Origin: Cyanophora paradoxa CCMP329
Lineage: Eukaryota > Plantae > Glaucophyta
NCBI GenBank assembly: GCA_004431415.1
Contig: QPMI01000420.1
Span: forward strand, 248,001 to 312,000
DNA length: 64,000 nucleotides
Direction of reading: 5' to 3'
Part shown: in pieces, positions 4,742 to 64,000 of the stretch
How the letters are laid out: every line of letters begins with the position of its first letter
Numbering within the stretch: the stretch's first letter is position 1
Notes under the pieces: generated by a model
Database searches by the model: none
Told to the model about the DNA's origin: nothing
Seen by the model: only the letters and a program-made list of their open reading frames with translations
Translations under genes and position numbers: made by a program

Positions 4742-5392
4742 CTAGCTGTAGGCCTTGACCTCTAAGGCGGCCGGACGTGCACATTTTGAGCGTACAAGTC
4801 ATTGAATGCCAATGCGCGCACGCGTTAGCACGTGCACACTAGTACTATCCCCCTACGAACTCGATTAAAACCAGATGCCTCCCCCCGCCACAGAGCTAGC
4901 AACAGGCTAGCTCCAAGGCAGCCTCCATAGGACGCCTCCCCGGACGCCTCCATAGGGTGCACGTGGCCACCCGCCCGCACCTGCCCCCCTCCCCGAAGCC
5001 CCCGTCGACCCCCCACAGGGACATTAAATCAGGCGCCCCACACGCAATAAAACACGGGGGCGCGCCCGTGCCATTATATTAGCCCGAGCCCCCCCCTCAC
5101 CTCCCCACCCCCCCTCTAACGACAGCCCCCAAGCTAAGCCCCCAGCGGCTACGACAGCCATATTGCCCTCAAGTAGATGCCACCCCATCAGCAGCCCCAC
5201 AAGAGGAACGCTCATAGTTAGCGACAGCCGATTTCGGCGTCATTCTTCTATATCGCGCTTGCGCGAGTTCGCGAGGGCTTTAATTTTGATTTTGTTCTAG
5301 ATCTAGATCGAGGATCCGAGGGCCGGATCGAGGCCTAGCTATATAGGCCTAGGGGAGCTTCGAAGATCTATGGCTATAGCTAGAGGAGCGAG

Positions 5393-32156: not shown

Positions 32157-32595
32157 ATATAGCTAGCTCTAGGCGGCACTTGGCCGTAATAATTTCCGAA
32201 ATCTCGTTCCAACAAGCGATGCCCTGTTAATGAGTGATATATGAGGCTTGTTTAAGCCTTTATATGATGCAACACACATGCTGTTGTTGACTGGGAATGG
32301 AGCCACTCACCGAGGTCAGTTTTCATGATCGGATGACAGAGTTGGATGAGGTCATGATCAAGACGCCATGATGTCAGGCTTGAGAGCTCGTCAGACGTTT
32401 TGGCGGGCTCTTACAGGTTAGATTACTTTGCGAGTCCCGACCTTTTTATATATCCTGAAAGTTCTTTTCATTGTCGTTCTTATGATGTACTCTGATGTAA
32501 TAGAGCTCAATTCTATCCAAAGATATTCAGTTCGAAAAGAAACTTCTGTGGATGGCACATGGTGCCCTGGTCTCGCTCTTGCCATCCCACTAGGG

Positions 32596-34193: not shown

Positions 34194-34572
34194 TCAGAGT
34201 AATAGTACCAGCTTCTGGAATGCCCGAATGTATTTACTTTGCCTTCGCGGCCCGCTTTATAGCTAGCTATCTGTAGTGAATTCTGAATTTCGGGGGAAAT
34301 GTCAAAACCGGAAACCGGCGTGGCCCCGAATTCTCGCCGGAGTCTTTCCAAAATTCCGCCAGAATATTCGTGATTCTCGAGATTGTGCGCGAATTCGGGG
34401 GAAAATGTCAAAATCGGCAAACGCTTTGGCCCGGCCCCGAGTTCGAATTCTCTCCCAAAACTTTATCGCCGGCCTCGCTCGTCGCGATTTTTCGCTCTCG
34501 CTCTTCTGTATTTTTTGTATTTCTGTAGTGTGTGTGCTCGAGTGTGATTTTCAAGAAGGACAGGGATGCAAG

Positions 34573-36140: not shown

Positions 36141-37284
36141 CATGATGTGCCTAGATAGCGCGCTATACAGCTATAGATAGTCGGCCAGCTGTCGGCTATA
36201 TAGCTCCAGTGAGCAACGTTAACTACCGCAGTATCACGAGCGCGCGCGGCTAGGCTAGGACGAAAGCACTTCTCCGAAGCTTTTGCATGTCTTCTGACGG
36301 GCTAGCTCGCGCGGAGCGACACGTTGTAGGGCGATCGTACTCGCGCCACTGGTGCCGGTGCGCGAGGGCACAGACAACGTTGAAACTGCTTCCAGAACAT
36401 AGCTGTCGCTACGCCTCGCCTCCTACGCCTCCGCTTCTATGCGCGACGGCGCCTGCTATCTCGAGCTGATTTCGGCGGGGGATAGCTCATTTCGGCATTC
36501 GCCGAAATCGTACCCGAAATAATTCTCGCTGTGCCCCGGCCCGCCGCCGCCGAGCCTGCAGGCGCGGGCGGCCCGCCTTAGGCTCTCGAGCTCATTGGAA
36601 GGAATTCGAGCTCATTGGAAGGAATCCGAGCGCGCAGGCACGGGCCTCCGCGCGATGCGGAGGCCAGCATCGGAAGCGACGTCGACGGCGCGGCCGTTGC
36701 GCATGCCGCGGCCGCGGCCGTGGCCGTCGACGTCGACGTCGACGTCGGCGCGCGTGGAGCCGACGCAGCAGCAAGACGCGAGCAAAGCGAGAACAGCGCA
36801 GGAGATTGACAGCTAGTGAGAGCAGGCGTACCGTAGAATACGTACGTGGTGGCAGTTTAATTTGGCCGCCGCGCGCGCTGGGCGGCGCCGGCCGGATCAA
36901 ATGTTCGTCAGTCCGAGCGGCGAGCGCTCGCGCAGCTACCGGTAGCAGCTAAAAGCGCAGCTGGCAGTGGCAAAGAGCGCATGCGCATGCGCAGGTGGAG
37001 AAATCCGCGAAAGGGCCGGAACGAGGGTACAGGGTTAAATCCAGCCAGCCACCCGCAACGCGAAGAGGCCGGGCGCTCGGCGAGCAGCTCGGTGTCGTCG
37101 GAAAGATCACAGCTACTGATAGATCGACCTTGCGCAATTGCCGCATCTTATCCAGACCTCCGAGTTGGCTGAACAATGGGCCCTCAGCTCGCGGGAGGGG
37201 GCGGCGGAGTCAGCGAGCGCTGAATCGCCGCTGGCAATGTTTCCTGCAAGCGGGAGGGCATAGTCGCGCTCGGAGAAGGCGGCG

Positions 37285-43200: not shown

Positions 43201-46200
43201 ATTATGCGCATGCGCAGGGGCCTGTCTCTCACGGCTGCGCGAAGCGCCCTCTTCGACAACGAAGCCAGACAACTCGGCGGGGGCCTGTACGCGGTCGACG
43301 TTGGCGCCTTGGCTCTCTCCTCCGTCTCCTTCGCTTCGAACGCCGCCTCGAACGGCGGAGGAGCTTTCATCACTTCGGATTGGCCTGTTTCTGTGCGTCT
43401 ATATTTTCCGCAACACGGTACGCGCGCGCGCCTGAGCTCATGCATTATAAACCGCAGTTCAAAATGCCCGGCGTGTCGTTCATCGGGAACTACGCCGAAG
43501 AGAATGGGGGCGGGCTTTTCATTTCCGGCGAGACCAGCGTGGAGCTGACCGGCGGGCAGCTCACCCAGAACACGGCGACCGCAAACGGGGTACGGAATCC
43601 TCTCGCCATCCGTCTACCATGGCCAGTGGGCCCTCCGGATCCTAAGCGAGAGTCTCGCAGGGGTTGGCTTACATCAAGAAGTCTAGCTGCCTTGCGCTTC
43701 TCAACCTGACCGTCACTTCCAATGCCGCCGACAACGGGGTACGATTTCCTCGAGGAAACTTTAATTTCTATTAAGCGCCGCGCGCCATCGAAATTGATCA
43801 CAACCATCCGCGCAGGGCACTTTCTTCCTCGACCAGCGCGCCTCCGTTCTGGCCGAGAACTGCAGCTTCGCGGACTCGCACGCCGCGTCGCTGGTCCGCG
43901 TCAATATATTAATCTTGCGTTCAGAAACTTTGCGCCGCAAGGGTTTCACGATTTGTACATGTTTCGCAGGGGGGCGTAGTATACGCCCAGCAGAGCTCCA
44001 GGGTCACCTTCCGGCGCGTCCGCGGCTCCGGCAACGACGCCGCGCAGGGCGGCGGGATCTACGCCAACCTCGGGCGGAGCGGCCTGCTGGAGCTGGAGGG
44101 CACGTCGTGGGACGGCAACGAGGCCGTAGGCGACGCCGGCGTCCTTTACCTGACGGGGACGGGCGGCCTCCAGGCGAGGGACTTCGTCGCCTCGGGCAAC
44201 CGAGCCGCCAGCGGCGCCGTCGGCATTGTCTCCGCTGAGGCGGACGCCTCTTTCTCCGGCTGCAGCGTCTTCGGCAACGTGGCCACGCAGTCGGACGGCG
44301 GTGCCTTCGTCGTCGAGCACCTCGCGTCGCTCTCGCTCTCCAACTGCAACCTCACCGGCAACGCGGCCCAGCTGAACGCCGGGGCGGTCCTCGCCACGGG
44401 CACGCAGCCGTCGCTCTCGCTCGTGAACGTGCAGGCGACGGGCAACACGGCGGGGCGGGGAGGAGGCGCACTCTCCATCACCGGCCTGTGCGCCGCGGCC
44501 ATAGTGGCAACCAACCTCTCGTCCAACACGGCGGGAATGTACGGCGGCTCGGTTTTCGTCTCCGGCGCCGCGGTCGCGTTCGTGGCCGTCCCGATGGACG
44601 ACAACGTCGCCACGTCCGGGTCGGGGGGCGCCGTGTTCGCCGAGCAGGCCACCACGAGCTTCACCGACGTCTCCCTAAAGGGCAACCGTGCCGGCGGCTC
44701 CGGCGGGTGCTCCAAGCCCTCTTTTATCCATTCATTTGCATCTCTTTTTCTCAAACATTCGTGATATCGCAGCGCGATTTACCTTGACGGCGGATCAGCG
44801 AATCTGACCGGCTCCTCCGTCGTGTTCAACCATGCCCTCTCGTTGGGCGGCGCCGTGCACCTGGACAACGCGGCCGTCCTCAGCGTGGCGCGCTCCGCGG
44901 TGTCGCAGAACGTGGCGTCCCAGGACGGCGGCGCCATCTCCGCCAACGCGCAGTCCAGGGTTCGCAAACTAATGCGTATACAGCTGATGACGCGAGAGAA
45001 ATTGGTATATTCTCGACTGACATGCAAATGCTCGCAGGTCGTCATCGAGCACTCGGATCTGACCAGGAACGAGGCTAAGCGTAACGGCGGCGCCGTCCTG
45101 GCGACCACGACGACGCTGACGGTGGTCGGGAGCGACCTCTCGGGCTCCAAGGCGGCCCGCGACGGCGGCTGCGTCGCGGCGCTCGGGTCGGACGTGACGG
45201 TCGCCTCGTCCAACCTCTCTGCGTGCGCGGCCATCAGCGGCGCGGGCGGCGCGATCCACGTGGAGGTTGGCTCCACTTTTCTCTCGCTTCGAATTCGTTG
45301 AAATACTGGTTTTCCGTTGATGCTGAGTGGCGAGCAGACGACGTCGCTGCGGGCGGAGGACGTGGACATGGCGCTCGGGTTCGCGGGCACGAACGGCGGC
45401 GGCGTCTCGGCCTACATGGCGGACGTCCGCATCCGCAACGCGACGCTCCGCGACTCCCGCTCCGGCCTCTCGGGCGGCGCCGTCTACTCCCGCATGACCG
45501 CCCTGGATGTCGAGGGATCGTCGCTGGACGGGTCCCGCGCCGGCGCAGACGGAGGTGCGCTCTCTTAAACAAATCTACAGGAAAGCGAATTAAAACTGTA
45601 ATTCAGGATGTGTTTACGTGGATGACGGAGGCGTGCGCCTCGCGGCCGCGACGCTCGCGCGCTGCTCCGCTGGAGGCCGCGGCGGAGCCCTCTTCGCCTC
45701 GCGGGCGGCGGTCAGGCTCGAGGCCTGCTCGGCTTCCGGCGCCAGCGCCGGCGCCGACGGCGGTGCCGTCGCGTCCATCGGCGCTCCTCTGACGGTTTCC
45801 GAGTGCGCTTTGAACTCTTCATTTTCTCCTTCAGCTTTCTGGTGATCGATATCGCGACCTGATTCGCCTTCGCAGCACTGTTTTCGCGGGCTCGAAGTCG
45901 GAGCGCGGGAGCGGCGGGGCGATCTGGAGCGACGGCGGGCAGGTCTCGATCGTGAGGTCGGACCTGTCGCAGAGCTCCGCGGGCGGCGGGCACGGCGGCG
46001 CGCTGTACGTCGCTTCGGGCGCGGCCGCTCTGGCGGCGTGCGACCTCTCGCGCTCGCGGGCGGCGGGCAAGGGCGGCGCGGCGTACTTCAAGAACGGGAC
46101 GGCGGCGCTGGAGGACGTGTCGGTGGCCGGGAGCGCGGCGGGCGAGTCGGGCGGCGGCGTGGAGGTCGAGGGCGTCGACGCCGGCGCGCCCTGCGCCCTC

Positions 46201-49200
46201 AGCCTCGCGCGGGTCGACGCGACCGACTGCGCGGCCCGTGGCGGGCCCGGCGGCGCCGTCCACGCTTCCCGCTGCAACCTCACGGCCGTCGACTCGGACA
46301 TGCGGCGCTCCCAGGCGGGCGGCCCCGCCGGCTCCGGCGGCGGCGTCCGCACCTTCTCGTCGCTTCGGGTGGAGCTCCGGCGCTGCGACCTCTCCGACAC
46401 GCAGGCCGAGCGCAACGGCGGCGCCGCGGCGCTGGAGGCGTCGTCTTTCGTGGTGGAGGACTGCGCGATGGACCGCGCGTCGAGCGCCCGCGGCTCGGGC
46501 GGCGCGCTGTTCGTCGACGTCGGAGAGGGCCGCGTGGAGCGCGTTTCCATGCGGGACGCCCGCGCGGGGGAGGGCCAGGGCGGCGGCGCGGCCCACTTCC
46601 GCGCCGCCTCCGTCGCGGTGGTCGGCTCGCCGATGACGGGCGCCAGCGCCGCCGCGGGATCCGGCGGGGCTGTCCTCGTGGAGGGCTGCGTGGCCAACTT
46701 CACGGCGGTTGACATGCGCGGCTCGCGGGCCCTGGGCCGGCCCGGCGCCGGCGGCGCCCTCAAAGCCATCAGCGCAGAGGTCACTCTTCAGGCCTGCAAC
46801 CTCTCCGACTCGCAGAGCCGCGGCGCGGGCGGCGCCGTCTCTGCGGACGCCTCTACCCTGACCGTTCTCGAGTGCGCTCCGCTCCGGATCCGTGGCCGCG
46901 TCGTCAGATCGAGCCCAGCCGAATGGCCGTCGCTGACCCGACGCGCCTCGCAGCTCGGCGCTGGACCGCGGCGTGAGCGCGGAGGACGGGGGCGGCTGCG
47001 CGCACGTCTCTGGCGGCTCGGGCCTCTTCTCGAACTGCTCCCTGGAGGACTGCCGCGCCCCCATCTCGTACGGGGGCGCCGTCTCGCTGCAGAACTCCCG
47101 CGGCCCGGTCGTCTTCCAGAACTGCTCGCTCCTCCGCGGGCGCTCGGGGCACGTCGGCGGGGCCGTCTACAGCGAGTCGTCGTCCCTCACGCTGCTCCGC
47201 TCGCCCGTCTCGCGCTCGTCGGCGTTCGCGGCCGGCGGCTGCGTGTACGCGTCGCAGTCGCAGCTGACGGTGGAGAACGCCGCGGCCGACGAGTGCACGG
47301 CGGCCAGCGGGGGCGGCTTCTTCCTCGACGGCGGTTCCGCCTCTCTGCTGTGCGTAAGTCTTACGAAGGACACGGCCACTGCGGGGGACGGCGGTGCGTG
47401 CTTTCCCAAAAAAGAAACGCGTGAATTAATTCTGGATCGCGATCGCGATCGTCGCCAACCCTCCTCAGGTGCGATCTACGCCACTTCGGCGTCCCTGCAT
47501 CTGGAGGCCTGCACGATCGAAATGTGCACTGCCGAGGGCAGCGGCGGCGATCTCTTCGTGCGCCATGCGCCCGCGTAGCCGCTCGCTCTCACTTCGAGCT
47601 CGCCTCACGCGGCCGCAGCTGACTGACACGGAGATCCGCGTTCTCAACTCCACCGTGCTGAACAATACGGCCAAGGTCGACGGCGGCGGGTGCGTCCGGC
47701 CGCGCTCGATCATTGCTGCGACCAGCGCGGCTGATCGCGATCTTCGACGTCGACGCCGTCGGCTCATTCGCTGCGCGCACGCACGCGCAGGCTCCGGGCC
47801 TCGGGCTTCTCGACGGCGCAGGGGGCGTGCCTCCTCCGCGCCGTGTCGGGGGCCGCCGCGCCGGCCACGCAGCACACGTCCCCGATGCGCATGAGCCTGC
47901 GCTCGCTCCTCCAGGAGCCCGCGCCCCCGAGCCCGGCCGCGTCGTCGTCCATGCCGACTTTCACCCGTCTCGTGCGGGTCGAGAACTCGGCCCTGCGCGG
48001 AAACGCGGCGGGCGGGGACGGCGGCTCGCTGTTCGTATCGGGGCCGATCTCCGCGGAGCTCGTCGGCGTGACGATCGCGTCGTCCTTCGCCTCCGGCCGC
48101 GGCGGCGGTGCGAGGATCTCTGGAATCCATGCGCACATTTTGAGCTTGCTTGCAATTGCCTGCAGGCATCTACGTCACGGCCGACTCCTTCTCGATGCTG
48201 GGGTCGACGATGACTGCGAACCGAGCGAGCGTCGGCGGCGCTGGATACGTGCGTAGATGTGCAATTATCTCTCCGATCCTCACGTGCACACAAACCAATT
48301 GCAATTATATATCTCACGCGTGCGGGTCTGTTCCAGATGGACTTGTCGAAGCCGACGGGCGAGCCGATGGACTGCTCGGCCGTCTCGCTCAACGGCACCG
48401 CCGTCCGCGGCAACGAGGCCGCCAAGGTGAGCTTGACAGGGCGTCTTTTGGAGGATGCGTTCATAAAGGCGGGCGCAGGGGGCGGCGTTCGTGGTGAAGG
48501 ACGCCGACCCGACGCGCTGCGCCGCCTTCGCCGACCCGCGCGCCTTCGACGGCAACGGCAACGGCAACCGCTCCATCGTCGCCGGTGCTGAAATGTTTGA
48601 AATGTTTGGTCGATCCCGAACTTTTGGTCGATCCCGAACTTCGAAGGCCCCGGGGCGATCGCGGTGCGGCTGCTGACGAACGAGACCAACCGCGCCTCGG
48701 GGGAGCTCCTCTCCTTCCACGTCGTCCTCACCGACAGCTTCGGCGCCAAGGCCCGCCCCGCCCCGCCCCGCCCCGCCCCGCCCCGCCCCGCCCCGCCCCG
48801 CCCCGCCTTGCCCGCTCGGCCACGCTTAAGCAAAGCTTTCTCGGCGAATCTATCTTTTCTGCCCCGTTCGAGACTTAGAAAGCCCCGTATTGTTATTTAT
48901 TGTCACTATCTCGTCGACTCGAGATTTAGAAAGCCCCGTATTGTTATTTATCGTCATTTATTAAAGCCCCTCGTCGAATTCATCTCGTCGACTCGCCAGG
49001 TGGTCGACTCGCCGACGGCCGTCTCGCTCGCGGCGGCGGACCCGGACGCCGTGTCGCTTCGGGGCGCGCTCTCCGCGACGACCCTTGACGGGGAGGCCAC
49101 CATCACCGCCCAGGTCACACCGCCCTTTCACTTTCGTTCAAATCAAAGAGCGACGCCGAGGCCGGATATATAATATCGATCGATTCAAACAACGCACAGT

Positions 49201-49997
49201 TGCCTAAATATAGAACACAACGCCGAATCTAAGCCGGCTCTGCCGCCTGCGCGCGGGCGCGCAGATCGTGGCGCAGCCGGGCGAGGCGCACGCGCTGCGG
49301 TTCACGGCGGACATCCCCTACCGCCCGGTCACCCTGGAGCTCCCCGTCCGGCTCCGCCCCTGCCTCAAGGGTCCGTAGCGGCCCGCGCTTAATCTTCTTC
49401 GGTCTGAAAACTTGAACTGATCGCGTCGGTCAGGCGAGGTGCAGCTGCCCAACACGCGCGTCTGCATGCGCTGCCCTGCGGGTGCCTTTGTTTGATTTCG
49501 TCCTTTGCTCAACACCTTCGCTGCTCACGTCAGAATCTTACCTTCCATCAACCAGGCACGTTCAGCATCCTGGAGAGCGGCTTCAAGGACCAGGAGTGCC
49601 GCCCCTGCAGCGACGTGCGCCCTTCGAATTTCTCTTTCCTCGAGCGCCAGCCGACCCCGACCGCCCCGCCCCGCCCCGTCCCGCCCCCGCAGGGCGCCGA
49701 GTGCCCGGGCGGCTCCGCCGTGTACCCCTCCCGGGGGTACCAGCGCGCCCCGTACGATTTCACCGTCATGCTGCCCTGCCAGGTTGAATTCGCCCCGCAG
49801 AATAAATTTACACTGAAGCTTTAAGCGATTCCGTTTAAGTTGAGCTCTCGCCGGCAGAACGACGCGTGCCTGGGAGGCCCGGAGGACCGGTGCGCGCCGG
49901 GGCACGAGGGCCCGCTCTGCACCATCTGCGCGGAGGGGCACGGCCGCCGCGACAAGTACGGGTGCGCGAGCTGCCCCGGCCGGGCCCTCAACGCCGT

Positions 49998-50028
<31 letters not shown>

Positions 50029-53000
50029 CCCCTCCTCCTTTTTCCCCCTCTACCCCCCCGGCTGACGAGGGCGCGCGGGCCGGCATCCGCCGTGCGGGGG
50101 CAGGCCCTGCTGGTCCTCACCTGCGTCGTCGCCCTTGTCGTCGTCGCTGGTGCGCTCCCGACGATCTGGATCCCCTTTAGATTTATGATTTGATTTTCTT
50201 CTGGTCGGCAGTGCTTGTGGCGTTCAACCTGCGCTCGCTGCGGCCGAACGCGACGAAGCGGCCCTCGCGCCTCACCACCATCACCAAGATCCTCTTCAGG
50301 TCACCCGGCGCCGCTAGAGCTAGAGCTTTATATATTATCACTAGAGCTCTCGGCCTATCGCTCCTATCTAATCTTCTAATCCCCGAATATATCGGCTCCT
50401 TCGAATTCGCGTCTCGCGGCCATCTATCTTAAGCTATCTTAAGCTTGAATCTCACTAATTATAACCCCTCCCCGGCGCGCAGCTACATCCAGCTGCTCTC
50501 TGTGGCGCGGGACTTCAACCTGCGCTGGCCCTCCGAGCTCCGCGCCGTCTTCCTCGTCCAGACCATCATCGCCTCCCCCGCCGACATGATCGTCTCCGTG
50601 CGTAAAGAGCCCGATCAGACATCGACGTCTCGAGAGGGCGTGAAAAGGGGCGAAATCTCAGTACGGAGAGCTGACGGGCCCGCGTGTCCGCCCGCCCCGG
50701 CCCCTCCCGGCCCCCCGCGCAGTTCGAGTGCTTCATGGAGTCGCGCGTCTCCCGCTCCGCCTTCCTCTCCCGCGTCTTCGGGTGCGCCCGCCGCCCCCGG
50801 CCGGCCGGCCCCGGCCCCGGCCCCGCCGCGTTAGCGTTCACGTCAGGAGAATCGCGGATAATCGCAAAAAGGAAATACTAGTACTACCTAGGCTTCCCGC
50901 TCCTCGTCCAGACTTTCTAGCGCCTCTTCCCGGATCCGGGAGATTTTTTCCGGATCCGTCGTCCCGTCGCTGACGTTGCGGCGGCGGGGGCCGGCGCACG
51001 CGCAGGTACACGCTCCTCCCGCTCATCGCCGTCGCCGCACCCGCCCTCGTCTTCGCCCTCGCCTACGCCTACCACCGGTCCGCAAAGACAAGAGGATTCG
51101 CTCACAGTCGTTCGAGTCCTAGCAGTCGTCAACGAGCCTGCAAATCTTCTCTTGAGCTTCTCTCATTTAAAGCTGGCGCGTTTTGCGCAGGGCGAACCGA
51201 CCTGAGTCCCTCCCGCGCCGCGCCGCGCGCTCCTTCCGTCGCCTCCGGATCCGCGGCGCCGGCGGCCGCGCCCGCGTGGGCCCCGAGGCGGATGCCGGGG
51301 CCGACGATCGCGATGCGCCCTCGCCGGCCCAGCCGGCTCCAGACCCGGAGGATGAGGAGGAGGAGGACGAGGAGGAGGCGGGGGAGGAGCGGGAGGCGCC
51401 GCGCGCGTCGCGATCGGCGTGGACGGCGTCGAACGTTAATTACTCTTCGGACTCGCGGCCGGCCTCGCGCGGCTCTGGGTCCGGTTCCGGCTCCAACTCT
51501 GTGCGGGGCTCCGCCGCCCTCGCCCTCGCCCTCGCCGCCGGCAAGCAGCGCGAGGCCGGGGCGGCGGCGCCGGCGCGGGCGCCGGCCTCGCAATCGGACC
51601 CGCCGCCGGCCCTCGCCTTTGCGTTTCCGGAGCAATTTCCCCTCGAGTTCGACGTGGCGGTGCTCGACGCGTCGACCGCGCGGCCCGCCGTCGTCAGGTG
51701 CGCACGCGCTCGCCTCCGATCCGTCGCGATCGGCGCCCGCCGTGGCGAGGACGGCCTCTGACCGCCGCGGCGCCGCGGCGCCCGCGCCAGCCTCGGCGGC
51801 GACTCGCCCAGTGGCTCGACTCGATCGCGAGGCTCGCGGTCGCGATCGCGGTCCGCGTCGACCCCCGAGGCGCGCGCGCCCGACCCGACCCGCCGAAATC
51901 TCGAAATTCGGGAAGGTCGGCGCCCTCGATCCTCACGCCCAGCGCAGCTCGCCTCGATCCTCTTCGCGCCGTCCTCCGGCGCGGACCTGCCCGCCACCGC
52001 CCCGCCCCTGCCCCTGAACGCCCGCGCGGGCCCCGTTGACGTCCCGCTCCTCGTCTCGCCGCCCTCCTCCTCCCGCTCGCCGCGGCCCTCCTCGCTCGCC
52101 CCCGGCTCGAGCCTCCTCGCGCCCTACAGCAGCGCCGCCGGCTACGATCGCGAGCCGCCCAAGCCCCGGCGCGGCTCGGCGCCCTTCTCCTCCCCCTCCC
52201 TCTCAGAGTCGGCGCTGAGCGGCCGCGGACGGCCGCCGGCGCGGCGCGCGCTCGGGTCGCCCTCCGCCTCCGCCAGCGCCCCGGATGGCGACCTCGGCAT
52301 CGGCCCCGGCCTCGCCGCCACGCTGACTCACGACGCCGACGCCGCCTCCCGCTCCCACCGCAACCTCGAGGTCTTTTTACATATAATGTTTTCTGATTTG
52401 TTTAACGTGTTTGTTTAACGGTCTTTTTATAATTGCGCATCCATCTTCCTTTATCTCTCTGGTTTCTATAGCTAATTATAGTTTAGGACCTGCTCTCGGA
52501 CGAGGGGGAGACGGCGACGGCGGTGGCAGACGCCGCGGGCGATCGCGAGGCCGGCGGGCAGCTGCAGGACGGCGGCCGCGGGGCATACCTATTCGATCTC
52601 TTCGTCCTATCCAGGTCCGATGGATTCACTTAATCGTACAGATGAAAAGCATCGGTTATATCAATTCTAGGACGAAATCGGGTCTTGTTTCGTGTGTTTA
52701 GCGCTCGGGGGACCTCTATACATCTTTATATACTTGTCTTCGATCCCGTTAACGTTCCTCTGACGTGTACGCGCGGTGGCGGGCAGCGTTGTTGGCCTCT
52801 TCCTCGTGCACCCCATCGTCTCCCGGCAGGCCCGCCCCGCCCCGGCCCCTCCCGCTGCGCCCCCCGCTGCGCCCCGCCCGGCCCGGCCCGATCTCGGCGG
52901 CACGCGCAGGTCTTCATGATCTTCGCGTGCACGAACGTCGGGCGGAACTCGCTGCTCGACCAGGACATGTGCGGCGGGGATCAAAGGGATCGCCTAAAGC

Positions 53001-55666
53001 GGCGAGGAGATCTAGAGATAGCGGGGGGCGGTCTAGAGTTGATAAGAACATCTCTAATTTATAAGCCACACCTAAGCCACCTGAGGCTATAGCTATCTCT
53101 CCTCGACCAGGACATCTGCTGCGGCCGCTCGGATCAGAGCTCAAGCCTAGCCTAGCCTAGCCTAGCCTTCCTCGCGATCATCGATTGATAACTAATAGTT
53201 GCGATTGCGTCCCATCCAACCACTCCCGCGCGGGCGCGCAGGCGGGTGGGGTGCTGGGGCGCGGAGCACGCGCTCTGGAGCGCGACGCTGGGCCTCGGCG
53301 GCGTCCTCCTCTTCGTCGTCGGCATCCCCTTCGCCGGCCTCGCCCTCCTGGCCCGCCCCCGCCCCCGGCCCCGGCCCCGGCCCCGCCCCCGATCGCGAGG
53401 GGAGAGGCTAGAAGCTTAAGCTCCGCACTAGCTTTGGAAATGAGGCGCGCAGAGAATTTAAAGAATAAGGGGCGATCGGCGGCTCCGAGCGTCGCGCGCT
53501 GACCGGCCGCCCGCCCGCGCCCGGCGCCGCAGACGGCGAACCGGGGCCGCCTGGCGGAGCGGCGCGTGCTCCTCCGCTACGGCTTCCTCCTCCGCGGCTA
53601 CCGCCGCCGCCGCTTCTTTTGGGAGGCCGTGCGCCCCTCGAATCTATTTACGAACTTCTCTAGAAGCCTTTTGTAATTTATTGGCATCTTGTGCGCGATG
53701 CTTTAATCTATAGTTGTAAGCCCTTTCATTATCGATCCTTCCTGACAGCCGTCGATACACGAATCCGCCTAACGCTTCTCCATAATGCTTTTTGTAATTT
53801 ATATTATCGCGTATGCAGGTGGTGGTGCTGCGGAAGCTGGCCTTCGTCTTCGTGGCCTCCTTCTTCTCGTCGCGCCCCGTCGTCCAGGGCCTCCTCGGCA
53901 CCGGCATCCTCGTCGCCGGTGCGCCCTCCAGCTCTGATTCGAAGCGGGCCGATCCTAGCGCCGCGAAGTCTATATATTAGCGCTTCTCAATTATTACGTT
54001 GAATTTCCCATGTATATTGAAGCCGATTCGTTGCTTCGCTAATATTTATATACGAACATCGCCGGCGCCGCCCGCCGCCGCGCCGCCGCGGCCACCGGCC
54101 CGAGCTCGAAGCGGATCGATCGCCCGCGAAATTGCGAGACGACTATATATCCTCGCTACACGAAGCCTACCAGCGCTTCGCGACCATAACTCTTAATTCA
54201 AATCCGAGGCACTTTAAATTTCCCGATTTATAATTACGAGCATCGCCGGCGCCGATTTCGATCCCGATGCCGATCGAAACGTGCACGTGACGGCGGCCGG
54301 GGCCGGCAGCGCTGATCCTGAACATCGTGATGCGGCCGTACTCGCTCGAGCTCCTGAACGTCCTCGACTCGGCCGCGCTCCTCGCCTCCGCCCTCACGGT
54401 CGGCCCTCGCCCGCCCCCTCACTCGCCCCGCGGCCGCTGACGCCGGGCGCCTGTGCCTGCGCCCGCGGGACAGCTGTACGCGGGGCTCTTCTTTTACTCG
54501 CAGGAGGTCGCCGGCGCCGACTCCGCCGCCGTCACCGTCATCCTCGTGCGCCCGCGACGAATCCGATCGAATCGAGCCAATTAGATACAGAGCTAGCGCT
54601 AGATCTAGAGCTGAACATGAAGTCAGGACCGCGCGCGCGCCTCCCTCTCACCCGCGCGCCCCCGGCCCGTCCGCCCCCGCCCCCGCAGCTGGGCATCAAC
54701 GTGGTCTTCTGCGCCTTCTGGGTCGCCTGCCTCGCCTACGAGCTCCACAAGAAGGCCAAGCAGCAGGTCCGCCCGCGCTCTGCTCTAGATTCAGATCTTT
54801 GCCAAAAACAAATTAAGAGTGAAAAGTGGGCGTTGCGATGAGAAGACGTCTTTCCCGGGGGCTGCCCTTCCCGCCGGGTCACTATGTATCGCCCTGCCGT
54901 GTTTCGAATTCCGGAGTTTTAAGTGGCGCCTCTGGATCTGCGACATCGATATCGCCGCCGCGAATGCGGTTTTCGGATCCTGCGCCGATCGTGCGTGCAC
55001 GTGGCCGGGCGCGGCGCCGGAGCTGAGTTATAAAAGTGGCGCCTCTGTGTCTCCGATGTCGATATCGATATCGCCGCTGCGAATTCGAATGCGGTTTTCG
55101 GATCGGTTTTCGAATGGGTCATGATCATTCGCGGCAGTTCCCGGACGCGCCGGTGCTGCTCTTCGCCGACGCCGTCGGCCGCCGCCTCTCCGCCATCTCG
55201 TGCGCCGCCCTTCTCGTGCAGTGCTGGTGCTATCACTAGTGTAGTTCTCTTTGTCTCTGACGGGGGCCTCGCGATCGCGGCTAGGTACGTGCGGGACTGG
55301 CTGGCGGCGACGGACGACAACGACAACGAGATCGAGGTCAAGGGCGACGCGGGCTCGCCGCCCCCCGCCGCGGCGCCGCCGGCGATCGCGAGCCCCCTGG
55401 GCCTGCCATATGCATCCAAGCCCCGCCCGACGGTGCAGGGCAAGGGCAACGCCGCGAATTCGAAGGCCGCCGCCCACGGCGACGCCGACGCCGGCGCCGC
55501 GGACGCGGACGCGGACGCGCATGGGCACGGGCACGTCGCGGGCGCCGTCGTCGCCGAACTCGACGCGTGCAGCGAGGCCCATCTGCGCGTGCGCGCGCCG
55601 CCGCCGCGGGGCGCCGGCGCCGGCGCTGCTCCGGCGGAGATCGTCGACCTGCGGCTGCAGGCCTAG
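37285..55666 (+). CDS. Very large multi-exon cell-surface receptor-like protein: signal/anchor, 2 CUB-like domains, EGF, Cys-rich motif, pectin-lyase-like beta-helix with dozens of GG(A/G)[ILV] (Pmp-like) repeats, Cys-rich juxtamembrane region, multi-pass TM C-terminus
   Basis: CUB-like PTCAWTFEAPAG...YIDLESPGDSL and CRWVIDV...VFDGDKESAPVLARFSG; EGF CINGQCVNGTCACNANFTGARC; WTCAIDNYGTRDGCDCGCGLHDPDC; LYVSPRGTD...NPFRTIA...VVLPGRY; repeated FxxNxAxxGGA[VL]; CAPGHEGPLCTICAEG; TM region KILFSYIQLL...NLRWPSEL, FMIFAC...DQDMRVGCWGAEH, YGFLLRGYRRRRFFWEAVVVLRKL. TAG at 55664-55666; start approximate. Confidence 0.85.
38474..38885. repeat. C-rich low-complexity tract, probably intronic
   Basis: Runs of C interrupted by T/A between the donor gtgccg (~38466) and the acceptor atcag (~38939). 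Confidence 0.7.
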
Positions 55667-56692
55667 GGTCCTGGCCATATATATGCATGGGGCGTACACG
55701 TACACGCACCTGCCGATCGCGAGGGCCAGGGTCTCCCGAGTCCGCCCAGCGGGGCCGGGCCGAGGGGCCGGGCCATGGCCAACGTGGTCTTCCGCGCCTT
55801 CTGGGTCGCATGCCTGTTGTCGACGAATTCAAACGCCGAGCAGCCTGTTCTCGGCGAATTAACTATTTCTTTGCAATTGTGCAGTACTAGTAGTCTAGTA
55901 CTAGTACTAGTACTAGTCTCGTTAGCCAGCACGTGCACCGACATACAGCATACGGCTTCTAAATGCATTCATGCTAGTACTAGTATTGCTTTACGTCTTC
56001 AAATCGTGTCTTGTCGTATGCCTAATGCGCGGAGTCAAATTTTGCTGTGCTGTCTAGCCCCGCCCAGAGAGCTTTTGCTCCCCCATGGCCATTCCCCCAG
56101 GAACTCTTTTGCTGTACATGCGTGAGTCTCACTCTAGATGTGAAATTTGCCAGGCTTGCCAGAGTATATGCATAAGTACCTGTGAGAGCGATATCAGTCG
56201 CTATCAGTCTCCGGCTGATAATAGCCTGATTTTATGTCGAGTCATTGTGCCACGGTGTCGACACTGACTCGACAGTATAACTCGACACTGATCATGATTC
56301 GAATTCGGCGTTGACGACACCATGACGACAGGCATCGAGTCGGACACTCAGGAGCTCGAGTGGACACTGGACAGCAGTGTCACAGCACTAGTGTCTAATT
56401 TCAACAACCCAGCACAAAAGCAAGAATTAAATAGGATTAATGGGAGAGTCTGGGGTCTAGATGTAGACCTACCCGTACTAGGCTAGCCTAATAGCTATAG
56501 CAATAGATTTGGATTCTTGGAGATTCGAATTCTAGCTATATATAGATCTGGAGATCTAGACTGGCATCTGGACTGCCGCAGCTAGGGTTGACGCTTCACA
56601 CGAAGTTTCGCACTGGCATGTATACGTACATATGCATGTACATATGCACGTGTGGTTATAATTATATATGTGGGCCTTTGTGAAGCGTTGAG
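52967..56692 (+). repeat. First copy of a >=3.7-kb direct duplication (receptor 3' exons plus flank)
   Basis: Matches 60277-64000 at offset 7307-7310; the only differences seen are 1-nt indels in G/C runs. Confidence 0.97.
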
Positions 56693-56912
56693 CTCTCGAG
56701 CTTGCCCCTTCGCTGTCAATGCATTGTTAACCCTCGGAGGTTGCATGAGTCACGCGTCGCGGAGGTTTGGGTGTTATATTGCGATCAGGTACACGCTGCA
56801 CTAACAGGGGGGCTAGCACTAACCGACGCGGGAGTAACAGCCGGTGTACCCCTCGGGGGCCTCCCGGCCTCTAACGATGCTCAGGCTCTAACTGAATGCT
56901 GTACCCCCGCTG

Positions 56913-57650
56913 TTACTGCCCGAACCTTCCGAACTTGCGTAATTCGGCCTCGCCCTGTACCCAGTGGCTGGTGTCGTCCATCCATTCGCGTACCTCCCTC
57001 TGACGCTTGAGTGACTCACGCTGCTCGGGGTAGGGGAGGGGGGCCTTCGAGGCGGGGTGGGGAAGGGGGTACGGTGGCAAAATTCAGCCACTCGGGGGTA
57101 TGCCGAATTCGCCGTGAACGATCCTCTGCGGTGTGAAATACCGGTCGCTGCTCACGGCCAAGTGGAAGAACGCGCTCCTGAGCCCGGAGAGGAAGCGTGG
57201 TTGCATGAATGGCTGCTGGAGGGACTCGTCGCGCCAGGGGGCTACGAAATCAATGATACGCTGCTGTACCTGCGCGGGCAGGGCAAGGATCTGGCTCTTG
57301 CGGTTCGCAAAGGCCGTCCACAGCGCTTGCAGGTCGGCCCAATCGCCGTTCAGATCCCTGCGTTCGCGCCTCAGGTACGATCTCGGGTTCTCTGTCATAC
57401 CCATCAAGCCCGCGGCCCTGATCATCTCCCTGTCCGGGAGCTCTCGCTCGTCGTGGAATTCGTCTCTAATCCAGCGCACAAGGTAGAGCACGCGCTCCAT
57501 GAAGTTCTCCGCCGGCGAGCCGCCCCCTGAGGACGTGCGCCTCCCCTCCAGCACTGCGTTCGCATCCTCCAAGTCCACGTTCCGCTGTCGAATCTCCCCG
57601 TCCAGGTCGCCGTTGTTGTACAGCACGTCGGACTCGCGTGTTCGCGCCAT
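56913..57650 (-). CDS. Orphan protein A (paralogue of B): 188-aa ORF plus in-frame 56-aa tail after a TGA
   Basis: ATG 57650; TGA 57084-57086; the frame stays open (ILPPYPLPHPASKAPLPYPEQRESLKRQREVREWMDDTSHWVQGEAELRKFGRFGQ) to TAA 56913-56915. Confidence 0.65.
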
Positions 57651-57684
57651 GCTCGCGGCTCGGTGAGAATTTATACCTGTACCC

Positions 57685-58380
57685 CTACTCGCGGTCGGGG
57701 TACCTGTCGCCGGGCATCAGCCTCGCGCGCTTCCGCATCTCCGCCTCCCGGGTAGCCAGTTCTTCGGGTCGTTGCTCCACTCCTCCCATTCGCGTATGTC
57801 CCGTCTGACGTCACGCGGGGCGGGGGCGTTTATCGGTGGGGCGGGCGGGGCTGGCAGGGCCTGGCGCGGGGGTTGAGGCCCCTGTTCCACGAGTACTCGG
57901 GTACTCTTCCCATCCCAGGGGTACCAGATTCATCGGAATTGGCTCAACTTCGAATTGGGGCTTTTTGACGTGATAATCATAGTTTGTGACATACGCCGTC
58001 ACAGCCGAGCGCAAGCGCGAGAGGTCGCGCAAATTTACGTCGTCCCATTGCGAGTCCCTTGCCTTCGCGTACCACTCGAGGATTTGCATGCGAATGTGGT
58101 CCGGGAGGGTCGAGAGTATGCTGAGCTTGGAGCCCAGGGCGAACCAGATGCGCTTGAACTCGTCGATAATCCTGCCCTCGTCGTGGCTCCGAACGTAAAG
58201 GGCCCCGCCAGAGTTGTAATGCGTGTCTAGCCACCCTGCCCGGGCCAGCTCTAGCACCGGCCAGGGTTGGCGCTGTCGATTCGGTCGCGAGGCCTGCTCT
58301 ACCACCCAGCGTCTAAGGTCCTTGACCTGATCTATGAACTGTGCGATCACGTCCCTGGGCGCTTCCTCTGCATCCGACAT
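57685..58380 (-). CDS. Orphan protein B (paralogue of A): 189-aa ORF plus tail after a TGA
   Basis: ATG 58380 (MSDAEEAPR); TGA 57811-57813; the frame continues to ...EAEMRKRARLMPGDRYPDRE TAG 57685-57687. Confidence 0.65.
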
Positions 58381-58430
58381 TTGCAATTGCACACATCAAG
58401 AAATTCTAAACGCTACTGCGAGGCTACGCT

Positions 58431-59085
58431 ATGCATACCGATACAAATTGCGAGACTTTGCAACAGGGAGCGCAGCGTGGCACGCGGCGCGCCGTGAAAA
58501 ACTAACTGCATCTAATTTTGCGGCTGCGTGCGGCATAAACCCCTGGAAATCCAGGGCCGCCTGTGGGCGGAGCTAAGCGGGATAGCGGAGGAAAACAACT
58601 TTGACAACCCTGCCCTAACCTATGGGCATGACTATGAGCCCCTCGCGGTCTCTCTCTACAAAACGTCGAACAACAACGTGGACGTGCAACATACTGGATT
58701 GCACGAACATAAGGAACTGCCCTTCCTGGCGGGCAGCCCGGACGGGCTGATTGGAAGCGATCGTATACTTGAAATAAAATGCCCCTACAAACAAGAACTC
58801 TACGAAAAGGTCCCAACTTATTACATGCCCCAGCTCCAGGGCCTGCTGGACATAACGGGCCGCGAGTGGGCCGAACTTTTTTGCTTCACTCCTCTGCGCG
58901 TGCAAACGTGGTACGTCAGACGGGACGAGAGGTACATCAAGCTCATGAGGAAGTGCTTACATCTATTTTGGATGCACGTCAAGGAGGGCACGCCGCCCGA
59001 GCCCTACAGCGATCGAATGAAGTCAGAGAACCTCAGCGAGGAGCAGGCGGCGCTGCGCGAGTTTAAGTCGTACGCCCTCCTCTAG
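58431..59085 (+). CDS. YqaJ-like viral recombinase / lambda-exonuclease family nuclease with two apparent single-base frameshifts
   Basis: MHTDTNCETLQQG/SAAWHAARREKLTASNFAAACGINPWKSRA/LWAELSG...ALTYGHDYEPLA...HKELPFLAGSPDGLIGSDRILEIKCPY...YYMPQLQGLLDITGREWAELFCFTP. Motifs W...R...TAS, G...E, SPDG, EIKCP and Y..Q.Q are all present. Shifts at ~58468 (GGG) and ~58561 (CC). Confidence 0.92.
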
Positions 59086-59134
59086 TGTCCGGACCTTTCC
59101 AATACTCTATATGATTATTGGAGGGTCCGGACAC
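59085..59134 (+). terminator. Hairpin directly after the YqaJ stop (candidate 3'-end/polyadenylation signal)
   Basis: GTGTCCGGACCTTTCCAATA-ctctatatgat-TATTGGAGGGTCCGGACAC: ~19-bp stem with an AT-rich loop. Confidence 0.7.
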
Positions 59135-59154
59135 GTCTCTTGGTCAGACTACTT

Positions 59155-59206
59155 CTGTCCCAGGTCTTTGGAATCTTAATATAAATTTTCCCGGGACCCG
59201 GGACAG
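59155..59206 (-). terminator. Second hairpin, downstream of the convergent minus-strand ORF
   Basis: CTGTCCCAGGTC...GGAA-tcttaatataaatt-TTCC...GACCCGGGACAG. Confidence 0.6.
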
Positions 59207-59219
59207 GGCTTGGTCGGAC

Positions 59220-60276
59220 TCACCGTAGCTTGGTGTAGCTCAGGCCCAGGCCGGGTAGGCGAGTCTGTAATGAATCAGACCGCGCAGGATTTGGTTGAGC
59301 TGCTCGGTGCAGGGGGCGGGAAGGCGAGGCCGCGGAGGGCCATAGAGACGTAGCGGAAGGGGTGGGGAGGCGGCCCCTGTTATCCCACATGGCGTCCACT
59401 ATGGCGTTGTGGACCACTTGCTCTGGAGGGCGGGACGGGCCTGCGCGCACCGTTTCAGGGCCCTCAGCAGCCCTCGAAGATGTTGGAGTTGGCGTGCACC
59501 AGCGGAGGGAGGGCTGGGACGGCGGCGGCGAGCCCGGGCCGAGCCCTGGGTGGCGAGGGCCTGCGAGGGCGCCGGCTCCAGCTCCATCTCGAACATACCG
59601 CCCTCGACGTCGACGGTCACGGGCGGCGAGGCCGGGATCGCGCCGGCCTGCTGCGTGGCGGGGACCTGAGCCGAGAAGTTCTCGAGCCGCCACTCGCGGC
59701 AGCCCTGGCACTCACCTGGACGAAGACGGTGCGGTTGGCGACGGGCGGCGTCGGCAGGGCCTGCGCGGGGGCGTCACTCACAGAAGCCGAAGGCGCCGGC
59801 CTTGTGGGGCGGGGCGTCGGGGTCGCGGGGCGTGCTATAGGCCTCCGAGCCCTCCGATTCAGAGTCACTCACCGGGCTGAGAGGGTGGGTGAGAAGAGGC
59901 CGAGGCGGGCCTTCTTGGCGGGCAGGAGGTGGGAGCCGTTGAGGGCGCAATCGGCGCCGTGGGCGCACCTCTCTCCGTAGGTGGGGCAGAGGGCCGGGGC
60001 GAGGGCGCCGGAGCCAAGGGCGCCGGAGCCGAGGACGCCGGGGGCTGGAGGAGGCGGTGAGAGGGCCGAGGAGGAGAGGAAGGGGGAAGGGCGCGGGCAC
60101 CGGCGCCGGGACGAGGCCCTCCTCCAGCAGCCGCATCTGCGCCTCCTTCGCCTTCTCGTCGATGCGGGCCTCGAACGTCGCCCAGTTGAAGCCGACGGCG
60201 TCCGCCTCCGCCAGCTCGGGGAGGCCGTGCTCGTCGAACGCCAGCGCGGGCCGCCCGCTGAAGCCGAACGGGGCGG
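59220..60276 (-). pseudogene. 5'-truncated, frameshifted Pro/Ala-rich ORF C with a CCCH-like motif
   Basis: Consecutive coding-like segments in shifting frames: APFGFSGRPALAFDEHGLPELAEADAVGFNWATFEARIDEKAKEAQMRLLEEG; LCPTYGERCAHGADCALNGSH; VTVDVEGGMFEMELEPAPSQ; EQVVHNAIVDAMWDNRG. No start before the junction at 60277. Confidence 0.5.
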
Positions 60277-63200
60277 ATGTGCGGCGGGGATCAAAGGGAT
60301 CGCCTAAAGCGGCGAGGAGATCTAGAGATAGCGGGGGGCGGTCTAGAGTTGATAAGAACATCTCTAATTTATAAGCCACACCTAAGCCACCTGAGGCTAT
60401 AGCTATCTCTCCTCGACCAGGACATCTGCTGCGGCCGCTCGGATCAGAGCTCAAGCCTAGCCTAGCCTAGCCTAGCCTTCCTCGCGATCATCGATTGATA
60501 ACTAATAGTTGCGATTGCGTCCCATCCAACCACTCCCGCGCGGGCGCGCAGGCGGGTGGGGTGCTGGGGCGCGGAGCACGCGCTCTGGAGCGCGACGCTG
60601 GGCCTCGGCGGCGTCCTCCTCTTCGTCGTCGGCATCCCCTTCGCCGGCCTCGCCCTCCTGGCCCGCCCCCGCCCCGGCCCCGGCCCGGCCCCGCCCCCGA
60701 TCGCGAGGGGAGAGGCTAGAAGCTTAAGCTCCGCACTAGCTTTGGAAATGAGGCGCGCAGAGAATTTAAAGAATAAGGGGCGATCGGCGGCTCCGAGCGT
60801 CGCGCGCTGACCGGCCGCCCGCCCGCGCCCGGCGCCGCAGACGGCGAACCGGGGCCGCCTGGCGGAGCGGCGCGTGCTCCTCCGCTACGGCTTCCTCCTC
60901 CGCGGCTACCGCCGCCGCCGCTTCTTTTGGGAGGCCGTGCGCCCCTCGAATCTATTTACGAACTTCTCTAGAAGCCTTTTGTAATTTATTGGCATCTTGT
61001 GCGCGATGCTTTAATCTATAGTTGTAAGCCCTTTCATTATCGATCCTTCCTGACAGCCGTCGATACACGAATCCGCCTAACGCTTCTCCATAATGCTTTT
61101 TGTAATTTATATTATCGCGTATGCAGGTGGTGGTGCTGCGGAAGCTGGCCTTCGTCTTCGTGGCCTCCTTCTTCTCGTCGCGCCCCGTCGTCCAGGGCCT
61201 CCTCGGCACCGGCATCCTCGTCGCCGGTGCGCCCTCCAGCTCTGATTCGAAGCGGGCCGATCCTAGCGCCGCGAAGTCTATATATTAGCGCTTCTCAATT
61301 ATTACGTTGAATTTCCCATGTATATTGAAGCCGATTCGTTGCTTCGCTAATATTTATATACGAACATCGCCGGCGCCGCCCGCCGCCGCGCCGCCGCGGC
61401 CACCGGCCCGAGCTCGAAGCGGATCGATCGCCCGCGAAATTGCGAGACGACTATATATCCTCGCTACACGAAGCCTACCAGCGCTTCGCGACCATAACTC
61501 TTAATTCAAATCCGAGGCACTTTAAATTTCCCGATTTATAATTACGAGCATCGCCGGCGCCGATTTCGATCCCGATGCCGATCGAAACGTGCACGTGACG
61601 GCGGCCGGGCCGGCAGCGCTGATCCTGAACATCGTGATGCGGCCGTACTCGCTCGAGCTCCTGAACGTCCTCGACTCGGCCGCGCTCCTCGCCTCCGCCC
61701 TCACGGTCGGCCCTCGCCCGCCCCCTCACTCGCCCCGCGGCCGCTGACGCCGGGCGCCTGTGCCTGCGCCCGCGGGACAGCTGTACGCGGGGCTCTTCTT
61801 TTACTCGCAGGAGGTCGCCGGCGCCGACTCCGCCGCCGTCACCGTCATCCTCGTGCGCCCGCGACGAATCCGATCGAATCGAGCCAATTAGATACAGAGC
61901 TAGCGCTAGATCTAGAGCTGAACATGAAGTCAGGACCGCGCGCGCGCCTCCCTCTCACCCGCGCGCCCCCGGCCCGTCCGCCCCCGCCCCCGCAGCTGGG
62001 CATCAACGTGGTCTTCTGCGCCTTCTGGGTCGCCTGCCTCGCCTACGAGCTCCACAAGAAGGCCAAGCAGCAGGTCCGCCCGCGCTCTGCTCTAGATTCA
62101 GATCTTTGCCAAAAACAAATTAAGAGTGAAAAGTGGGCGTTGCGATGAGAAGACGTCTTTCCCGGGGGCTGCCCTTCCCGCCGGGTCACTATGTATCGCC
62201 CTGCCGTGTTTCGAATTCCGGAGTTTTAAGTGGCGCCTCTGGATCTGCGACATCGATATCGCCGCCGCGAATGCGGTTTTCGGATCCTGCGCCGATCGTG
62301 CGTGCACGTGGCCGGGCGCGGCGCCGGAGCTGAGTTATAAAAGTGGCGCCTCTGTGTCTCCGATGTCGATATCGATATCGCCGCTGCGAATTCGAATGCG
62401 GTTTTCGGATCGGTTTTCGAATGGGTCATGATCATTCGCGGCAGTTCCCGGACGCGCCGGTGCTGCTCTTCGCCGACGCCGTCGGCCGCCGCCTCTCCGC
62501 CATCTCGTGCGCCGCCCTTCTCGTGCAGTGCTGGTGCTATCACTAGTGTAGTTCTCTTTGTCTCTGACGGGGGCCTCGCGATCGCGGCTAGGTACGTGCG
62601 GGACTGGCTGGCGGCGACGGACGACAACGACAACGAGATCGAGGTCAAGGGCGACGCGGGCTCGCCGCCCCCCGCCGCGGCGCCGCCGGCGATCGCGAGC
62701 CCCCTGGGCCTGCCATATGCATCCAAGCCCCGCCCGACGGTGCAGGGCAAGGGCAACGCCGCGAATTCGAAGGCCGCCGCCCACGGCGACGCCGACGCCG
62801 GCGCCGCGGACGCGGACGCGGACGCGCATGGGCACGGGCACGTCGCGGGCGCCGTCGTCGCCGAACTCGACGCGTGCAGCGAGGCCCATCTGCGCGTGCG
62901 CGCGCCGCCGCCGCGGGGCGCCGGCGCCGGCGCTGCTCCGGCGGAGATCGTCGACCTGCGGCTGCAGGCCTAGGGTCCTGGCCATATATATGCATGGGGC
63001 GTACACGTACACGCACCTGCCGATCGCGAGGGGCCAGGGTCTCCCGAGTCCGCCCAGCGGGGCCGGGCCGAGGGGCCGGGCCATGGCCAACGTGGTCTTC
63101 CGCGCCTTCTGGGTCGCATGCCTGTTGTCGACGAATTCAAACGCCGAGCAGCCTGTTCTCGGCGAATTAACTATTTCTTTGCAATTGTGCAGTACTAGTA

Positions 63201-64000
63201 GTCTAGTACTAGTACTAGTACTAGTCTCGTTAGCCAGCACGTGCACCGACATACAGCATACGGCTTCTAAATGCATTCATGCTAGTACTAGTATTGCTTT
63301 ACGTCTTCAAATCGTGTCTTGTCGTATGCCTAATGCGCGGAGTCAAATTTTGCTGTGCTGTCTAGCCCCGCCCAGAGAGCTTTTGCTCCCCCATGGCCAT
63401 TCCCCCAGGAACTCTTTTGCTGTACATGCGTGAGTCTCACTCTAGATGTGAAATTTGCCAGGCTTGCCAGAGTATATGCATAAGTACCTGTGAGAGCGAT
63501 ATCAGTCGCTATCAGTCTCCGGCTGATAATAGCCTGATTTTATGTCGAGTCATTGTGCCACGGTGTCGACACTGACTCGACAGTATAACTCGACACTGAT
63601 CATGATTCGAATTCGGCGTTGACGACACCATGACGACAGGCATCGAGTCGGACACTCAGGAGCTCGAGTGGACACTGGACAGCAGTGTCACAGCACTAGT
63701 GTCTAATTTCAACAACCCAGCACAAAAGCAAGAATTAAATAGGATTAATGGGAGAGTCTGGGGTCTAGATGTAGACCTACCCGTACTAGGCTAGCCTAAT
63801 AGCTATAGCAATAGATTTGGATTCTTGGAGATTCGAATTCTAGCTATATATAGATCTGGAGATCTAGACTGGCATCTGGACTGCCGCAGCTAGGGTTGAC
63901 GCTTCACACGAAGTTTCGCACTGGCATGTATACGTACATATGCATGTACATATGCACGTGTGGTTATAATTATATATGTGGGCCTTTGTGAAGCGTTGAG
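60277..64000 (+). pseudogene. Second copy of the duplication: promoterless 3' exons of the receptor gene (stop at 62973) plus flank; runs off the window
   Basis: Identity to 52967-56692 starts at ATGTGCGGCGGGGATC (60277). Confidence 0.9.

Follow-up and report, generated by a model that had tools for sequence, protein, structure and literature searches.

The 64,000-nucleotide stretch of the Cyanophora paradoxa CCMP329 genome analyzed here (contig QPMI01000420.1, positions 248,001 to 312,000 of the forward strand; referred to as the window) carries, close to its end, the left part of a multicopy, dispersed and young mobile element. Four genes are visible in it: two orphan paralogues, A and B, a stand-alone YqaJ/lambda-type exonuclease, and the 3' third of a large orphan, C. 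That the element is mobile is near certain, because many dispersed copies share one sharp end. The identity of the enzyme that moves it is less certain, C being the likely mobilizer. We read the element as a DNA transposon that pairs a stand-alone lambda exonuclease with an unrecognized transposase, C, similar to ISL2EU and KolobokE but belonging to neither, and give this reading slightly less than an even chance. The original prediction, made from the letters of the window, had seen an undescribed virus or mobile element. Mobility held up, while a virus-like nature found no support: C is intron-rich, the visible 3.6 kb hold no capsid, packaging ATPase or replicase, and the one visible end shows no long terminal repeat. 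Nor are the genes single-copy and syntenic, which the same prediction had named as evidence to the contrary.

Contigs of the element reached depths of 2,600-4,100 in short-read run X1, compared to 220 for the flank (12-19x), of 480-640 compared to 32 in X4 (15-20x) and of 66-115 compared to 3-6 in X3 (~20x). These depths indicate tens of element copies rather than an exact number. Gene models of C are found on 26 named C. paradoxa contigs and are 94-100% identical to each other, with a median of 98% (14 models, 91 pairs, N-terminal part). YqaJ is represented by 14 accessions and A by seven gene models in C. paradoxa. By model numbering, C adjoins YqaJ on three contigs, while the orders C-B-A and C-A are each present on one. 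On three contigs the C copies are just 2-5 model numbers apart, which fits a small unit size.

The element terminus is found twice in the window, at 56663 and 63971. The unique flank contig ends at 56692, which would place the first 31-base word that is shared at 56663. Three X17 contigs start at 56662/56663, preceded by unrelated sequence. The TATATATGTGGG end is common to other insertions, and a short AT-rich motif is present in all four flanks seen. TATATAT is thus either a specific target or the element's own first bases, two cases that look the same; after AT, the left end reads GTGGG. Next to the shared end, TTAA is absent both from the window and from the two flank consensuses shown. 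In X1, depth was ~5,100-5,300 at the tip and ~5,150 when summed over the variants further in, i.e., it did not double. There were no strand-change joints, and this rough depth sum in one run argues against a long perfect inverted repeat, such as one of hundreds of bases.

The original prediction had described a compact module at 56700-60276. The unit starts at 56663 and is incomplete: a tandem duplication, which that prediction did not report, has its breakpoint within C and severs the unit at 60276. The segment 52967-56692 recurs at 60277-64000 with 99.9% identity over 3,727 aligned columns, with 0 mismatches and four one-base gaps. Since the joint 60276/60277 lies in C and contigs of the element continue beyond 60276 into other sequence, matching upstream C residues of other copies, the module represents the severed first unit of this duplication. 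Model P0029 (tig00020572_g11588) reproduces the chimeric frame of the window, and a full C model, g11593, is found on the same contig five model numbers after it. The second copy, from 63971, likely continues intact past the window end. The joint shows no microhomology. It is absent from the short-read contigs, which drop weak links, and hence this absence is no evidence against the duplication. Flank depth favors a real duplication, with two copies predicting 32.6 in X4, where 32 was seen, and 147 in X1, where 220 was seen and more than two copies would fit; this comparison is confounded by G+C content (60% versus 67-68%). Overall, the duplication is likely real rather than an assembly artefact.

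The host gene affected by the duplication (~38000-55666, plus strand) is large and intron-rich. At 43913-44761 it weakly matches a beta-helix family (PF13229, E 4e-4), its C-terminus is hydrophobic and multi-pass, and its 3' 2.7 kb were duplicated along with the element. A 14-base direct repeat, CTCGACCAGGACAT, at 52955-52968 and 53102-53115 flanks an intron-like segment of this gene; the duplication breakpoint 52967 is at the end of its first copy.

Table 1 Features of the element and of the tandem duplication, in window coordinates.
Feature	Position	Strand	Remarks
First unit of 7.3-kb tandem duplication	52967..60276	+	Host gene 3' end and severed element
Left part of multicopy element	56663..60276		Right side severed at 60276 by duplication breakpoint
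Left terminus, TATATATGTGGG	56663..56674	+	From unique flank contig end and X17 contig starts
Orphan A, ~246 aa	56913..57650	-	Without visible intron; assembly error of one base near 57093
Orphan B, ~233 aa, paralogue of A	57685..58380	-	Assembly errors near 57746, 57867, 57898
Divergent B-YqaJ spacer, 50 bp	58381..58430		From sequence
Stand-alone YqaJ/lambda-type exonuclease, ~215 aa	58431..59085	+	PF09588; assembly errors near 58465, 58556
Gene C 3' third, candidate transposase	58624..60276	-	Residues ~554 to end of ~800-aa orphan
67-nt GTAAG..GCAG intron of C	58894..58960	-	Wholly inside YqaJ coding sequence, antisense
Hairpin (DNA/RNA) directly after YqaJ stop	59085..59140		z -7.2; within intron 59004-59223 of spliced C transcript
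Second duplication unit	60277..64000	+	Second element copy begins at 63971

All four genes of the original prediction proved real, as did the spacers of 50 bp (B-YqaJ) and 34 bp (A-B). A and B are both on the minus strand, YqaJ is divergent from B, and C is convergent on YqaJ; judged from its sequence, the 50-bp spacer likely serves as a two-way promoter. The frames of all four genes are interrupted in the window by one-base losses. These were compared with contigs from X1, X3 and X4 (DNA or unlabelled) and from one probable RNA run, X15. Because the contigs hold the missing bases at or near full depth (among the 12 of 32 rows listed) and the breaks sit in short homopolymers of G or C, 2-5 bases long (10 of 10 sites checked), the frameshifts stem from the assembly and all four genes are intact. 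A pseudogene reading was ruled out by the absence of the breaks from the short-read contigs.

The genes had also been described as intronless and bounded by terminal hairpins, both of which were true in part. A, B and YqaJ show no introns, whereas C is spliced. The hairpin after YqaJ is strong, with 0 of 200 shuffles folding as well, but the fold at 56820-56930 is modest (z -2.8, 3 of 200 shuffles) and the element tip at 56660-56780 has no fold beyond chance (z -0.1). In other element copies, the hairpin region between YqaJ and C (59068-59205) is variable and in places tandemly duplicated. Rfam gave no match in 52000-64000, and a bacterial promoter scan returned a result at chance level.

On comparison of its copies, YqaJ is intact and under purifying selection. 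P0001, a copy 91% identical to the YqaJ of the window, matched PF09588 at E 3e-28, and matches extended to PHROG 434 (E 9e-40) and to lambda-exonuclease structures (E 1e-11 to 3e-20). The catalytic residues R14, E63, D98, E108 and K110 are the same in all 14 homologues aligned. Among the copy differences listed for frame 58558-59082, 15 of 23 are synonymous against 22% expected (p 9e-6), the substitutions not being independent events. The original prediction had likened the C-terminal motif of this YqaJ to plant and algal YqaJ-like proteins, but the searches returned no plant or transposon YqaJ. Phylogenies were built from 109 and 55 rows, the second without near-duplicates and many long rows; neither contains plant, ISL2EU or KolobokE sequences. 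The Cyanophora proteins cluster with P0003 and P0004, both from short contigs and 60% and 48% identical to the window's YqaJ, respectively (support 98/96), and these two may mark related elements in other protists. Sister to this group are phage-like exonucleases (92/90, not starred), while a grouping with a clade holding giant-virus contigs was not rejected (approximately unbiased test, p-AU 0.25). The nearest relatives of known gene context, at loci L001, L086 and L014, show 34-41% identity, and all three phage-like relatives tested adjoin ERF or Rad52/Sak genes.

A and B are, by sequence, true paralogues, as predicted: full-length A matched two B models at E 2e-13 and 1e-11 in phmmer. They also remain orphans, with no credible relative outside C. 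paradoxa. Among 1.84 billion representatives, A retrieved two C. paradoxa matches and a dubious one (E 5e-6, 41 aa of a 2,667-aa protein); neither protein has relatives in IMG/VR or a significant match in PDB (best E 1.1). The proposal that A and B are annealing partners of the exonuclease found no support in sequence searches of Pfam and PHROGs, where neither matched ERF, Rad52/Sak or RecT, although the nearest phage relatives of YqaJ have such neighbors. Copies of A are 96-98% identical to the window's A, whereas the two B models share 84% with each other and ~70% with the window's B, the latter value being lowered by frameshifts. The faster change of B suggests a conflict with the host. C. 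paradoxa methylates repeats at CpG (PMC12344493). The contig joints 57685>58371 and 57705>58376, at first taken for tandem B genes, are better explained by divergent B alleles between conserved flanks.

Six host-type introns, all GT-AG, interrupt C within 1.4 kb (minus strand; 60045-60100, 59761-59872, 59651-59715, 59265-59450, 59004-59223 and 58894-58960). Five are shown by joints in X15 contigs and the sixth by one loose end, all in this one run, which is not recorded as RNA and was treated as such because of its spliced joints. None of the five joints is present in the X1, X3 or X4 contigs. Once spliced, the last exons of C run antisense to YqaJ and the frame stops near 58980. One X15 contig connects 58893 to 58961 and agrees with the window at every letter of 58624-58893. 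Alternative 3' forms of C are possible, since many predicted models terminate near 59243.

No relative of C outside C. paradoxa was found in 5.8 billion proteins, nor any in IMG/VR, GTDB genomes, phages, plasmids and PDB sequences or among the 6,661 open reading frames (ORFs) of 164 fetched loci. By eye, the motifs MT[YC]DSVF (D40) and VALLLMSDNAA (D115) resemble the strands that hold the first and second aspartates in transposases with an RNase H fold. The two aspartates are 75 residues apart in strand-like contexts, and DEWH at 438 constitutes a later DxxH. From these motifs we infer that C may be an RNase H-fold (DDE-like) enzyme. An HxxR is present at 460-463, while residues 1-560 of the predicted gene models contain neither C-x(2-4)-C nor CxxH. 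Also by eye, C was weighed as an ISKra4-like enzyme, a tyrosine recombinase, an EEP nuclease, an HUH protein or the C-terminal domain of a helicase; no tool supported any of these.

If C is the transposase, the mechanism could be pictured as follows. The unit, probably ~7 kb in total and inserted at or ending in TATATAT, would be moved to TATATA-type sites by C, which would recognize the element ends and cut and join the DNA. By analogy with ISL2EU and KolobokE, YqaJ might trim DNA ends in excision, gap repair or integration, and the antisense C transcript could limit the output of the nuclease. A and B may be accessory DNA-binding or anti-silencing proteins. In favor of a transposon we count the C copies on 26 contigs, the fixed gene order, the close numbering of C copies on three contigs, the depth step with the shared end at 56663, the host-type introns of C and the excess of synonymous differences in YqaJ. 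Two groups of DNA transposons are known with this nuclease as accessory (PMC4482050, PMC9587614).

Several observations weigh against this interpretation. All four C models tested matched 0 Pfam families at E<=10, and C matched nothing in NCBIfam or PHROGs under E 0.2 and nothing in PDB. AlphaFold models from single sequences were unusable (pLDDT 37 and 35), which leaves Foldseek and VIA comparisons with them meaningless (best Z 3.1). The best Atlas scores for C, 0.76 and 0.82, are leads only. One third of shuffled proteins reach 0.8; the look-alikes of C hint weakly at an EEP endonuclease fold (0.81-0.82, below the reliable range). The DxxH of C follows D115 by ~320 residues, a spacing much longer than that of hAT or MuDR, and no residue of C could be assigned as the third catalytic one. 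The visible end has no long inverted repeat, although one under ~30 bp is compatible with the depth, and the right end and any target duplication are outside the sequence read. Finally, because gene models miss genes, the close numbering is weak evidence for a small unit.

Other explanations have to be weighed against these points. The visible 3.6 kb could belong to the end of an endogenous virus of greater size and of polinton-like or related type, whose capsid and integrase genes would then lie past C. The compact layout of A, B and YqaJ, with short spacers and without visible introns, would suit this, as would the proximity of YqaJ to phage enzymes and its tolerated grouping with the giant-virus clade. 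YqaJ is also among the genes listed for polinton-like elements (bioRxiv 10.1101/2022.07.28.501842), and endogenous viruses are present in C. paradoxa (PMC12344493, PMC12220804). We nevertheless consider a virus improbable, given the density of host-type introns in C, the recurrence of C copies within 2-5 gene models, the absence of IMG/VR relatives for C, A/B and the terminus, and a visible end that shows no long inverted repeat, whereas those of polinton-like viruses often measure hundreds of bases (PMC12220804). If the element were Crypton-like, it would enter AT-rich sites by site-specific recombination, with C as a very divergent tyrosine recombinase or with the recombinase located beyond the window or acting in trans. 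Cryptons have no inverted repeats and carry 4-6-bp terminal direct repeats (PMC3212892), in line with the AT-rich motif common to the four flanks and the lack of a long inverted repeat; the HxxR of C and the presence of several copies close together on one contig point in the same direction. However, C matches no phage-integrase family. It has no tyrosine at the usual distance past HxxR, and the 110 residues before HxxR appear all-helical in a low-confidence model, so that we regard this explanation as rather unlikely.

A comparably low probability is assigned to a rolling-circle or other endonuclease-driven, Helentron-like element, or to non-autonomous cargo that depends on an enzyme from a different family; in either case C would not be the mobilizer. 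The internal hairpins, the missing long inverted repeat and Atlas look-alikes of C residues 80-290, which are EEP endonuclease fragments, one of them labelled Helentron (0.81), are consistent with it, but such scores are common among shuffled proteins, C matches no Rep or helicase family, and all four genes look intact and conserved. Even less probable appears a transposase-free element spreading by recombination, in which YqaJ resects and A, B or C anneal, with copies and local duplications as the result. The ERF or Rad52/Sak neighbors of all three nearest YqaJ relatives tested, the absence of an integrase and the fresh tandem duplication with its breakpoint inside the element are in favor of this scenario. 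Yet A, B and C have no ERF, Rad52 or RecT family match, the duplication joint is devoid of microhomology, and a base-precise terminus common to insertions argues for an end-recognizing enzyme.

With C as transposase, the element would add another independent case of a transposon equipped with a lambda exonuclease; for the YqaJ ORF of ISL2EU, the role is stated to be unknown (PMC4482050). The element is apparently undescribed: no publication was found that links Cyanophora with YqaJ or Cyanophora paradoxa with Kolobok, in a search that did not cover Repbase and Dfam. A eukaryotic transposase of a new kind is a rare find, and most of the repeats of glaucophytes are unclassified, with 11.5% of the C. 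paradoxa genome assigned to 'unknown repeats' (PMC6704402). Dozens of intact young copies, a precise end and a relative-less enzyme candidate of 800 residues make the element a direct target in the search for a new DNA-cutting protein. It is conceivable, albeit unlikely, that it founds a new superfamily of eukaryotic mobile DNA, without long terminal repeats and with a TATATA-type target, in which C would be unrelated in sequence to known transposases, recombinases or Rep proteins, a phage-derived exonuclease would be braked by the spliced antisense tail of C, and one of two orphan paralogues would diversify fast against host silencing. Should C turn out to be a DDE enzyme of the ordinary kind, only divergent, the outcome would be a new transposon lineage and thus modest. 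A spliceosomal intron antisense within a selected nuclease coding sequence is an unusual regulatory layout.

Elsewhere in the window, three adjacent satellite arrays occupy 31218-36141 (40 bp x 23, 172 bp x 8.4 and 139 bp x 11.3). Positions 1-4200 have a lower GC content (49-56%) and ~80-bp exon-like repeated blocks at 626, 1459 and 2393 and at 1014 and 4062, and likely belong to a repeat-protein gene. The ORF 23618-25153 (minus strand) contains two CPC1/SPEF2 D5 matches (PF22946, E 2e-37) and is part of a flagellar central-pair protein gene.

Compared with known systems, the nearest context-known YqaJ relatives are found in phage modules of exonuclease and annealing protein, similar to lambda Red (L001, L086, L014). 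There, the exonuclease adjoins ERF or Rad52/Sak genes, whereas A and B match neither, and the element resides in the nucleus of a eukaryote and includes a spliced gene. Cryptons resemble it in having a short terminal motif and no long inverted repeats (PMC3212892), but no tyrosine recombinase was detected here and that source does not mention an exonuclease for Cryptons. KolobokE likewise employs a lambda-exonuclease-like PD-(D/E)xK nuclease as a DNA-transposon accessory; it differs in three defining respects, i.e., nuclease placement, TTAA target and CCHC finger (PMC9587614). Its nuclease lies downstream of the transposase domain, while YqaJ here has an ORF of its own, antisense to C; its target is TTAA, which does not adjoin the shared end described here; and its CCHC finger follows the first D, while C residues 1-560 hold no such cysteine pairs. 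ISL2EU, a PHIS/Harbinger-like group, has a recognizable DDE-HTH/THAP transposase, whereas C matches no DDE family. It carries inverted repeats of 6-259 bp usually starting with GG, an AT target duplication and a length of ~4.8 kb, compared to the TATATATGTGGG end here; in the accounts cited it is reported only in animals, and the Cyanophora element has two extra orphan genes (PMC4482050, PMC9179366). As no DDE-THAP transposase was found in the visible part, the element cannot be filed under ISL2EU. Nonetheless, it probably works most like ISL2EU, with which it shares a separate YqaJ ORF beside a large second gene and an AT-rich target (PMC4482050, PMC9179366).

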